Source: Eledone cirrhosa
Taxonomy: Eukaryota
NCBI GenBank assembly: GCA_964016885.1
Contig: OZ024744.1
Location: 108,004,001-108,068,000 of the forward strand
Length of the DNA stretch: 64,000 bases
Direction: 5' to 3'
Positions 58,031 through 62,400 of the stretch are shown piece by piece. Position numbers and translations under genes: made by a program. Under the pieces are notes generated by a model. The model worked only from the letters and a program-made list of their open reading frames with translations, was not told the origin of the DNA and made no database searches. Within the stretch, counting starts at the first letter, position 1, and the number at the start of each line of letters is the position of its first letter.

Positions 58031-59460
58031 ACAAAGAGGCTGTGGTAAGATACCAGGTGGACCCTAACGTACTCATTACTTAGGGTAGTAGAGTGGGTAA
58101 TAGGGAAAGAGACAGGACCCCGACGGGTGAGCTCCGGCTGTTTTGACAGCTAGATCCGAAACAGCCGGAGCTCAGCCGTCGGGGTTCTGTCTCTTTTTCT
58201 ATATATATATATATGTATATATAAAACAGAGAATGTCTGTTTGTATGTCTGTCTGTCTGTCAGCTCACTAAAACTCGAGAACCACCCAACCGACTGTTTT
58301 CAAATTTTTACACATGTAATACTTATGGTCCCGTGAATGTTTTGAGAAAAAATAATTTCAAATACCCTATGGACCGCATTAGGCGATTTAGTGATCTCTC
58401 TCTCTCTCTCTCTCTCTCTCTCTCTCTCTCTCTCTCTCTCTCTCTCTCTCTCTCTCTCTCTCTCTCTCTCTCTCTCTTAGTCTCTCTCTTTTTAGATAGA
58501 TGCATAGATATAACGTTGCACCCTTATACTATCTGTCTGTATGTCTGGCTGTCTGTCATTACACTATTATAACTTTGCCTTTCATCCCTACGGGGTCGAT
58601 AAAAATAAAGTACCAGTAATACACTGGGATAATTGCTGGCCTTGTGCCAAAAGTAGAAACAATTACATTATTATGACGCGATCAGTGTGTGTGTATATAT
58701 GTATATATAGTGTGTGTGTATATATATATATATATATATATATATATTCTTATGCCAGGGAACGTCTTCACGAACCAAAGTATCGTCTTCCTGTCTTCCT
58801 TCGGTTGCAACGCTTTTCGAAATATTTACATCTGCGTTCACAGATTGATTTTTTTAGTTTCAGAAAAATCCTGTAAAGGTTGAAAGCAGCGATTCTTTGC
58901 TTAAACTTTAATATGTTATTTTAATATATATATATATATATATATATATATATATATATATATATATATATATATATAAGTATATATATATATATATATA
59001 TATATATATATATATATATATATATATATATATATATATATATATATATATATATATATATATATATATATATACATACATATATACATATATATATACA
59101 TATATATATATTTCGTTTCTGAATTTGTTTAGCAAGATTCTTTATCTGAAATCGTGTGTTGAAACCGATATTGTTATACTTTGGGAGGGTCATGTTGCCA
59201 ATAAGAAACACACGCACCAGTTGCTTTCACTTCAATTTATTATAATAAATTTATAAATTTAGGAATTTATAAATTTATTATAATAAATTGAAGTGAAAGC
59301 AACTGGTGCGTGTGTTTCTTATTGGCAACATCACCCTCCCAAAGTATAACAATATATATATATATATATATATATATATATATATATATATATATATATA
59401 TATATATATATATATATATATATATATATATATATATTTATATATATTTATATATATATA

Positions 59461-62400
59461 CAAATAACGAAACGAAATTAAATTTCGTTTCGTTTGTAAC
59501 TCACTTTTGTATGACTGACGCTCAAACAATTAAGTCAAAGATGTACATCCATATATGTATACTGAAATACTAGTATGTATATGAATACACACACGTATAC
59601 ATATGTAGATGTACCAAGTTTTTTTCACTGATCACTTTACTGTGAGTGGCCAGCTATTCTGTATGTAAACACACAGACAAACCGGTTTTTAGAGTCATAC
59701 TGGTTTTTGAGGAAACACCTTTCCTCTATTCTCCAGAAAGCCAGACAAGGAATATTGAACTAGTTTCGTTGTTGTTACAACTCATCAGCAATATTTACCT
59801 ATCTTCCGGCCTCTCTAGAGAATCGTAAAAGCACATATCGCTATATGCTTTTTCTATGAAAATTAGTAGTGGGCAGACCAACTTGCATAGAGTGTGAGTA
59901 AGTACCGGTTCAACGGAGACGATAAAAACAAATAACGAAACGAAATTAAATTTCGTTTCGTTTGTAACTCACTTTTGTATGACTGACGCTCAAACAATTA
60001 AGTCAAAGATGTACATCCATATATGTATACTGAAATACTAGTATGTATATGAATACACACACGTATACATATGTAGATGTACCAAGTTTTTTTCACTGAT
60101 CACTTTACTGTGAGTGGCCAGCTATTCTGTATGTAAACACACAGACAAACCGGTTTTTAGAGTCATACTGGTTTTTGAGGAAACACCTTTCCTCTATTCT
60201 CCAGAAAGCCAGACAAGGAATATTGAACTAGTTTCGTTGTTGTTACAACTCATCAGCAATATTTACCTATCTTCCGGCCTCTCTAGAGAATCGTAAAAGC
60301 ACATATCGCTATATGCTTTTTCTATGAAAATTAGTAGTGGGCAGACCAACTTGCATAGAGTGTGAGTAAGTACCGGTTCAACGGAGACGATAAAAACAAA
60401 TAACGAAACGAAATTAAATTTCGTTTCGTTTGTAACTCACTTTTGTATGACTGACGCTCAAACAATTAAGTCAAAGATGTACATCCATATATGTATACTG
60501 AAATACTAGTATGTATATGAATACACACACGTATACATATGTAGATGTACCAAGTTTTTTTCACTGATCACTTTACTGTGAGTGGCCAGCTATTCTGTAT
60601 GTAAACACACAGACAAACCGGTTTTTAGAGTCATACTGGTTTTTGAGGAAACACCTTTCCTCTATTCTCCAGAAAGCCAGACAAGGAATATTGAACTAGT
60701 TTCGTTGTTGTTACAACTCATCAGCAATATTTACCTATCTTCCGGCCTCTCTAGAGAATCGTAAAAGCACATATCGCTATATGCTTTTTCTATGAAAATT
60801 AGTAGTGGGCAGACCAACTTGCATAGAGTGTGAGTAAGTACCGGTTCAACGGAGACGATAAAAACAAATAACGAAACGAAATTAAATTTCGTTTCGTTTG
60901 TAACTCACTTTTGTATGACTGACGCTCAAACAATTAAGTCAAAGATGTACATCCATATATGTATACTGAAATACTAGTATGTATATGAATACACACACGT
61001 ATACATATGTAGATGTACCAAGTTTTTTTCACTGATCACTTTACTGTGAGTGGCCAGCTATTCTGTATGTAAACACACAGACAAACCGGTTTTTAGAGTC
61101 ATACTGGTTTTTGAGGAAACACCTTTCCTCTATTCTCCAGAAAGCCAGACAAGGAATATTGAACTAGTTTCGTTGTTGTTACAACTCATCAGCAATATTT
61201 ACCTATCTTCCGGCCTCTCTAGAGAATCGTAAAAGCACATATCGCTATATGCTTTTTCTATGAAAATTAGTAGTGGGCAGACCAACTTGCATAGAGTGTG
61301 AGTAAGTACCGGTTCAACGGAGACGATAAAAACAAATAACGAAACGAAATTAAATTTCGTTTCGTTTGTAACTCACTTTTGTATGACTGACGCTCAAACA
61401 ATTAAGTCAAAGATGTACATCCATATATGTATACTGAAATACTAGTATGTATATGAATACACACACGTATACATATGTAGATGTACCAAGTTTTTTTCAC
61501 TGATCACTTTACTGTGAGTGGCCAGCTATTCTGTATGTAAACACACAGACAAACCGGTTTTTAGAGTCATACTGGTTTTTGAGGAAACACCTTTCCTCTA
61601 TTCTCCAGAAAGCCAGACAAGGAATATTGAACTAGTTTCGTTGTTGTTACAACTCATCAGCAATATTTACCTATCTTCCGGCCTCTCTAGAGAATCGTAA
61701 AAGCACATATCGCTATATGCTTTTTCTATGAAAATTAGTAGTGGGCAGACCAACTTGCATAGAGTGTGAGTAAGTACCGGTTCAACGGAGACGATAAAAA
61801 CAAATAACGAAACGAAATTAAATTTCGTTTCGTTTGTAACTCACTTTTGTATGACTGACGCTCAAACAATTAAGTCAAAGATGTACATCCATATATGTAT
61901 ACTGAAATACTAGTATGTATATGAATACACACACGTATACATATGTAGATGTACCAAGTTTTTTTCACTGATCACTTTACTGTGAGTGGCCAGCTATTCT
62001 GTATGTAAACACACAGACAAACCGGTTTTTAGAGTCATACTGGTTTTTGAGGAAACACCTTTCCTCTATTCTCCAGAAAGCCAGACAAGGAATATTGAAC
62101 TAGTTTCGTTGTTGTTACAACTCATCAGCAATATTTACCTATCTTCCGGCCTCTCTAGAGAATCGTAAAAGCACATATCGCTATATGCTTTTTCTATGAA
62201 AATTAGTAGTGGGCAGACCAACTTGCATAGAGTGTGAGTAAGTACCGGTTCAACGGAGACGATAAAAACAAATAACGAAACGAAATTAAATTTCGTTTCG
62301 TTTGTAACTCACTTTTGTATGACTGACGCTCAAACAATTAAGTCAAAGATGTACATCCATATATGTATACTGAAATACTAGTATGTATATGAATACACAC

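Follow-up and report, generated by a model that had tools for sequence, protein, structure and literature searches.

In the genome of Eledone cirrhosa, insertions of a 468-nt hammerhead repeat begin at two fixed internal positions of the monomer, site A (positions 463-1) and site B (positions 65-74), which lie ~70 nt apart and flank a predicted RNA hairpin, and 71 of 100 insertions are head-to-head arrays that start from A at one end and from B at the other. We consider it likely that these arrays arise by two-ended, two-site priming by the protein of a Penelope-like element (PLE) on an RNA that is probably circular. One of them lies at the end of the window, by which we mean the whole stretch of 64,000 nt analysed here; the genome searched comprised 3.0 Gb.

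The 468-nt array and its hammerhead

The first base of the array, at 59460, directly follows a (TA)n tract (59352..59459, also given as 59352-59460; unstranded), which is the target of the insertion and also contains one end of a two-armed PLE stub. The A-primed arm, with its RNA sense on the minus strand, occupies 59460..64000 and runs beyond the window to 8735 nt; next comes an inverted B-primed arm of ~6970 nt that ends in (TA)n. The whole insertion, of which the window contains one end, measures ~15.7 kb (G000:C28:108063460-108079157) and holds 32 full units with one variant among them. Monomer positions are numbered from window position 59460 (position 1).

Once per 468 nt there is a type I hammerhead with a palindromic helix III (ACUAGU), at 59750..59795 on the minus strand, whose activity is predicted only. 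A motif scan places its CUGAUGA core at 59788 on the minus strand and folding prediction recovers helices I and II; Rfam at gathering score returned no hammerhead match. The minus-strand orientation of the hammerhead makes the plus strand that of the cDNA. Cleavage is predicted after GUU, between 59758 and 59757. Between sites B and A, a near-perfect 29-nt palindrome (59466..59494, unstranded) is predicted to form an RNA hairpin, and folding puts site A just 3′ of a 13-bp stem-loop. The folding z of the hairpin is -2.5 in the 468-nt unit and -1.35 and -3.9 in two copies of a related 422-nt type, the two families aligning poorly.

By sequence criteria, the array is a non-LTR retrozyme: many arrays of tandem monomers of a few hundred nucleotides exist (period 468 nt), each unit has its type I hammerhead motif, no frame of at least 120 aa occurs within 59460-64000, so that the array is non-coding, and its ends are (TA)n junctions and not an LTR structure. 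Lacking an ORF with RT and GIY-YIG, it is not an autonomous PLE and is classed as non-autonomous. A motif resembling a 5′ splice site, AG/GTAA, is found upstream of the hammerhead in both the 468-nt unit (59792-59801, minus strand) and the 422-nt unit (16138-16148, plus strand); PLE terminal repeats contain introns.

Outer ends lie at two fixed sites

The initial annotation had claimed that the array joins (TA)n at one defined internal junction beside the hairpin, about 296 nt from the predicted cut. The junction is there, at 59460, and the measured distance is 298 nt; an internal, defined start far from the cleavage site stands, and what has to be changed is its uniqueness, as a second fixed site, B, is paired with A at the ends of insertions. 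In the window's insertion, site A is used at monomer position 1 (59460..59462, plus strand), 6 nt inside the modal position 463, at which 70 matches fall compared with 2 at position 1; the modal sequence, ATAAAAAC, can be seen in internal units, for example at 59922-59929. Site B, where cDNA synthesis has its other fixed start, corresponds to 59524..59533 on the plus strand, and its junctions fall at positions 65 (9), 66 (12), 67 (15) and 69 (42), the script that assigned junction positions having in addition picked up roughly a dozen core matches that are unrelated or internal. One of four sequencing runs of unstated kind, possibly from the source individual, has loose (TA)n ends at 59921-59922, which we do not count as support.

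The outer ends were read in a set that had not been chosen by junction, namely the window's array and 34 others found by monomer similarity (291 matches; 34 of 443 candidates scored; 34 other arrays readable among the 150 matches listed). All 58 resolved outer ends of these 35 insertions lie at A or B, neither at random nor at the cleavage site, and TA-rich DNA adjoins 52 of the 58, compared with a background of 4.0% of window positions. Among 158 arms, 81 start at A, 74 at B and 3 elsewhere, these last being alignment artefacts or internal breaks; one arm that starts at position 451 (L273) is an exception and is counted against the two-site explanation. Genome-wide, the A-junction pattern has 2020 matches and its reversed control 0, well in excess of what chance would give, and the family-wide B pattern has 886 reverse-strand and 1705 forward-strand matches, the latter partly redundant, with 0 for the reversed controls. 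The hammerhead pattern common to the 468- and 422-type families matches the genome 23,735 times.

Sites A and B are paired in head-to-head insertions

For the analysis of pairing, the set was extended with 40 of ~47 new B junctions (youngest subfamily) and the first 20 A junctions among the matches listed, together with 20 hammerhead-pattern loci, of which 3 entered the 468-type counts and one served to extend L113. The 71 A+B insertions comprise 62 with long arms, 7 in which one arm measures 7-19 nt, and 2 that were re-read (L051, L066). The remainder of the 100 are 12 simple insertions from A, 10 simple insertions from B, 5 left unresolved by a gap or the locus edge and 2 odd ones; neither A+A nor B+B occurs among them. 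Where a locus had been chosen by its B junction the second arm started from A (29 of 29), and where it had been chosen by its A junction the second arm started from B (15 of 15).

A test aimed against the rule, with the A and B junctions among the matches listed for C1:1-98 Mb, gave 31 A+B, 2 B+B and 1 A+A pairs in a set that partly overlaps the others. L269 is a true B+B insertion and the sole real exception of the three; the B+B at L270 is two separate neighbouring insertions, and the apparent A+A pairs at L121 and L111 are accounted for by a pair of distinct insertions and a 10-mer match due to chance. The pairing of A with B is consequently a strong rule, not an absolute one. Two internal start sites that bound a tail, an inverted head-to-head layout that has its tail at one end, and an AT-rich or microsatellite target belong to the signature of PLEs, and the family displays the three of them, with a tail of 70-74 nt where published ones have 30-40 nt.

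Inner ends, target duplications and primer pairing

The 152 inner ends of the arms are distributed uniformly across the monomer (KS P=0.91), and 3 lie at most 3 nt from the cleavage site, where 2.3 are expected. Seamless passage beyond the cleavage site is seen in 126 of the 152 arms, and 115 are longer than one unit. Uniform inner ends and arms that exceed the cleavage site or one unit imply that the template was not a linear monomer, which we rule out because ends are not enriched at the cut. According to BLAST boundaries, the inner joint between the two arms is blunt or has a 1-5 nt overlap in 43 of 63 cases.

Could the second arm be a copy of the first? One cDNA might fold back and prime its own synthesis, an endonuclease then resolving the palindrome at a second site to leave an inversion with a one-sided tail. 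An older view of inverted PLEs interprets head-to-head copies as self-priming (PMC3846280, in the part accessible), and the tail as the likely product of endonuclease resolution (PMC8557442, likewise in part). Self-priming accounts for the haplotype that both arms have in common (see below), and a few symmetric inner junctions (L046, L077, L091) and two short fold-backs (L104, L126) fit it as well. It is nevertheless largely refuted here and we judge it very improbable: the inner end of one arm bears no relation to that of the other (they fall within 15 nt of each other in 7 of 63 pairs, where 4.2 would be expected, P=0.12), T-tract lengths and single variants, as judged by eye, are not mirrored between arms, target-matched 3′ bases are found at both ends inside the 12-bp duplication, and the simple insertions from A (12) or from B (10) indicate that both are priming sites.

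Target duplications are informative in 16 insertions whose target is not pure TA, and they measure 12 bp in 8, 13 bp in 6 and 16 and 17 bp in one each. With 12-13 bp in 14 of 16, the family shows the dispersed insertions with duplications of >4 bp that are seen in retrozymes. The simple nick of the target assumed in the initial annotation has thus to be replaced by a cut of both strands with a stagger of ~12 nt, as deduced from the ~12-bp duplications. Typically, three of the duplicated nucleotides match the RNA at A and one does so at B. The modal A junction, at position 463, is ATA (ATA:UAU), and B starts always follow a template U, which is consistent with a primer ending in A opposite U.

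The initial annotation had also attributed priming to U/A microhomology with nicked (TA)n, at a single site common to the 468-, 422- and 628-nt repeats. An A:U pair at the primer end is indeed found, ATA:UAU is the commonest junction, the match at B reaches up to 8 nt in L056, a non-TA target, and the 628-nt family starts at a TATA match. As an account of how the site is chosen, however, microhomology is hardly credible. There are two sites; 13 other monomer positions match (TA)n better, over 4-6 nt, and none is used as a start; A and B also serve as the starts in non-TA targets (L037/8, L056, L066), in one case with a 0-nt match at B; and the 628-nt family has no inversions. The unused better matches and the constancy of A and B in non-TA targets signify that pairing tunes the register only. 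The choice of site is most likely made by a protein bound to RNA structure.

A probable common template for both arms

When both arms are at least 800 nt long, they carry the same majority haplotype in 27 of 29 pairs, compared with 6.1 expected from other insertions. Moreover, variants found in a single insertion can be fixed in every unit of both arms, such as C133A in 9 of 9 units of L045 and G28A in 11 of 11 units of L044. Shared haplotypes and fixed private variants favour a single RNA or a single clonal source, together with a step in which one monomer is copied repeatedly. Across 43 insertions, 76 variants are singletons and 17 are common to subsets of units. Old long arrays (L113/L268, L261, L082) repeat variants in blocks of 2, 3, 4 and 7 units, a pattern that young arrays, the window's own included, do not have. 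Block-repeated variants in old arrays are a mark of later DNA rearrangement and, together with the variants shared by subsets of units, they imply that part of the array length can arise after insertion. A strict dimer or heptamer circle as the source of long arrays is ruled out by the irregularity of the blocks. The locus formed by L268 and L113 (G000:C1:5738089-5752749), with a 31-unit arm and block-repeated variants, resembles an early higher-order satellite.

The same two-site PLE priming might have used a long linear, uncleaved multimer as template, the length of arrays then being due to long source arrays and later tandem expansion. We regard this as rather unlikely. In its favour, the in vitro work in the accessible sections of PMC11167929 found that the main substrate was RNA that had not been processed and that mutating the ribozyme had no effect on insertion, 8 of 9 frog retrozyme dimers stayed uncleaved in vitro in those of bioRxiv 10.64898/2026.07.22.740005, old arrays contain the block-repeated variants just described, and in L053 each of the two arms has C274A in some of its units. 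The private variants fixed throughout both arms of L045 and L044 speak against it, as they require that a single monomer was copied many times at some step, and so do young arms of 13-20 units that are almost devoid of shared variants.

We infer a circular template, a reading in which a single RNA molecule is not obligatory. This last point follows from L088 (G000:C3:73493977-73503976), whose arms come from two subfamilies: the A arm consists of five units of an older subfamily, a 22-nt deletion at the switch and then the young subfamily, to which the B arm also belongs. A template switch between two RNAs is possible in this case. At positions 298/299, the ligation site, no excess of variants that would represent a scar was found, which we count against a circle.

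Related repeats in the window

A related 422-nt retrozyme is located in the 3′ UTR of PLE family P2, with an A-primed arm of 520 nt (15972..16491, plus strand). As the initial annotation had it, this element meets (TA)n beside the same hairpin at the position homologous to the 468-nt junction: it ends ...TTTAT|(AT)n at 16491, 275 nt (274 had been given) from a predicted cut after 16216. The 422- and 468-nt units have related sequences around the hairpin, and each reads UUAUCGU at site A; the window's 422-nt hammerhead reads UAAA for GAAA and is probably inactive. In the 25 of 30 loci of this family that were analysed, most starts are at A and five insertions are A+B, with B at position ~57-62; one is A+A (L141) and is counted against the pairing explanation.

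The 628-nt hammerhead repeat (17209..18503, minus strand, 2.06 units) joins (TA)n internally, as had been noted, at 17209, 269 nt from the predicted cut and 6 nt longer than is usual for its family. The two-site, inverted layout of the 468-nt insertions is not seen in it. In 23 of 30 loci, representing 22 distinct insertions (two run off the locus), there is a single start site, towards which the search was biased since the query began at the junction, and an inverted arm is present in 0 of the 22. The single start site, the lack of inversions and a hammerhead with a full helix III suggest that this genome also has another way of insertion, from one end only.

Penelope-like elements obey the same rule

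Three stubs of PLE family P1 are found in the window. The first (59111..59354, unstranded), with its A′ arm on the plus strand, its B′ arm on the minus strand and a tail of 59 nt, has a TA tract in common with the array; the second is likewise two-armed (A′+B′; 37934..38184, unstranded); the third (39070..39665, plus strand) is a 3′ fragment with the C-terminal end of the ORF, a hammerhead at 39472, a B′ end at (TA)n and a short opposite A′ arm. The ends of P1 are 59 nt apart, and its 18 distinct pairs are 17 A′+B′ and 1 B′+B′, an exception that may represent nested insertions. The longest P1 frame has a GIY-YIG match (E=1.7e-4) just under the Pfam cut-off. The informative P1 duplications are of 13-14 bp or longer, a phase different from that of the 468-nt family, which is counted against the proposed mechanism. 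Four further (TA)n families gave A+B in every pair in the fetched DNA (F1 17/17, PLE family P3 9/9, F4 3/3, F6 3/3), and one P3 pair contains a PLE frame. P2 patterns yielded no pairs, and F5 yielded 2 AA and 2 AB with unreliable A/B labels. P2 is represented in the window by a 5′-truncated copy (14248..17158, plus strand) with part of the ORF, a long 3′ UTR, a degenerate hammerhead near 17080 and a (TA)n end; its 719-aa frame had no match in Pfam, and its PLE identity is indicated by visible motifs and by Atlas look-alikes with GIY-YIG/HTH_animal.

Because P1, F1, P3, F4 and F6 obey the same two-site rule, this appears to be general to the (TA)n-targeting elements of this genome. The suggestion that the enzyme is the RT/GIY-YIG protein of PLEs gains from these elements, and the link of the 468-nt array to PLEs is well supported. 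A further proposal, to compare the hairpin with the termini of autonomous Penelope elements, found no counterpart: no autonomous PLE with a homologous terminal hairpin, tail or pLTR was present in ~1.5 Mb of fetched DNA and ~20 hammerhead-pattern loci, a small share of the PLE families of the genome, searched by junction clustering, the hammerhead pattern with its 20 loci, tblastn with P1 and P2 and signature comparison.

Several other features of the window were observed. A short two-armed F1 element of ~170-200 nt, with a tail of ~74 nt and no ORF or hammerhead seen, lies between (TA)n tracts at 58031-58199. The P1 tail holds an open frame starting MTLPK (39640-39665 and the 3′ end of L220), which, as judged by eye, resembles published tails overlapping the beginning of the PLE ORF. 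Hammerhead-like motifs at 1794, 7149, 37702, 40145 and 52161 are probably termini of other PLE families. A 3.6-kb GGTAGT-type repeat at 42195-45824, with open frames of >1000 aa on both strands (Gly/Ser- and Thr-rich), is probably a simple repeat, and a perfect 219-nt inverted repeat (10558-10776 and 11654-11872) that encloses an 877-nt core may represent either a young non-autonomous DNA transposon or a further insertion with two arms.

Discussion

How would a non-coding repeat give rise to kilobases of inverted tandem copies? In the mechanism that we propose, multimer transcripts would self-cleave as dimeric hammerheads and then be ligated into circles. Hammerheads with a palindromic helix III cleave as dimers (PMC4209133, as far as accessible), and with dimer-only cleavage a monomer circle would be spared. 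The RT/GIY-YIG protein of a PLE would cut TA-rich DNA on both strands ~12 nt apart, and both DNA 3′ ends would be extended on a shared RNA, which is probably a circular monomer, starting at the two fixed sites that flank the hairpin. A dimer of the protein may bind the hairpin region, with one active site set at A and the other at B, and the last 1-3 nt of the primer would anneal to RNA rich in U (ATA:UAU at A, A:U at B), fixing the register only. Both RTs would travel round the RNA over distances set at random, which may reach many turns, and their cDNAs would be joined end to end. If one arm were lost or never made, a simple array would result, and older arrays may have been reshuffled later by DNA recombination. 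A bolder version, which we put forward tentatively, has the PLE dimer gripping the hairpin of one circular RNA while the two RTs chase each other round by strand displacement from the 12-nt staggered break; kilobase mirror arrays would then be made in one step, and the same geometry would explain the Penelope tail and inversion generally.

Some of these steps have precedents. In the accessible sections of PMC11167929, a PLE protein for which a dimer is predicted cuts both strands in vitro, extends them and initiates at a pair of internal sites on either side of the tail; the two sites displayed neither a strand preference nor homology to the target, which we count against a mechanism that pairs one site with each end. 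The tail of PLEs is often at one end, and their insertions are biased to (TA)n (PMC8557442, in part). Retrozyme circles exist, and both tandem cDNA from a primed circle and mobilisation by PLEs are hypotheses in the accessible text of PMC7229834. That of bioRxiv 10.64898/2026.07.22.740005 derives retrozymes from pLTRs and favours local amplification, while leaving the mechanism of retrozymes open. We found no paper describing two-site paired priming for retrozymes, although subscription papers, supplements and figures may hold part of it.

The way in which animal retrozymes are copied into DNA and the cause of one-tailed Penelope inversions are both left open in the accessible parts of the papers cited. 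In this respect, the 468-nt family offers thousands of young natural reaction products with readable ends, a defined RNA substrate (~110 nt, with sites A and B), a predicted cut geometry (~12-nt 3′ overhangs in TA repeats) and a rule of one site per end, open to direct test with purified protein. If the proposal is true, some multi-kilobase tandem arrays come from one retrotransposition event and not from gradual expansion.

In LINE-1 twin priming, both ends of a staggered cut prime cDNA, giving a head-to-head inversion with microhomology at the inner joint; the internal position at which the second primer anneals varies, and the two arms represent different portions of the RNA. The 468-nt insertions resemble this process in their both-end priming, inversion and inner-joint microhomology, and differ from it in that the second site is not variable but fixed, at B or A, and that both arms copy the same sequence many times. 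With metazoan non-LTR retrozymes (PMC7229834; bioRxiv 10.64898/2026.07.22.740005), the family has in common tandem non-coding type I hammerhead monomers, dispersal, duplications of >4 bp and a proposed mobilisation by PLEs; what is accessible of that literature does not mention the priming sites, head-to-head arms or A+B pairing that the 468-nt family shows. With endonuclease-bearing PLEs (PMC11167929; PMC8557442; PMC3846280, each in part), it shares two internal starts bounding a tail, a tail at one end of inversions, AT-rich/(TA)n targets, cutting and extension of both strands and short duplications. Unlike these elements, it has no ORF, its tail is longer than the published 30-40 nt and its concatemer arms reach 31 units; in addition, it shows near-strict use of one site per end and a primer pairing of 1-3 nt, whereas the in vitro work noted neither a strand difference nor homology (PMC11167929, accessible sections). 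Judged from its sequence, the 468-nt array carries the known Penelope tail and two-site signature on a non-LTR retrozyme, in an unusually clear and countable form.
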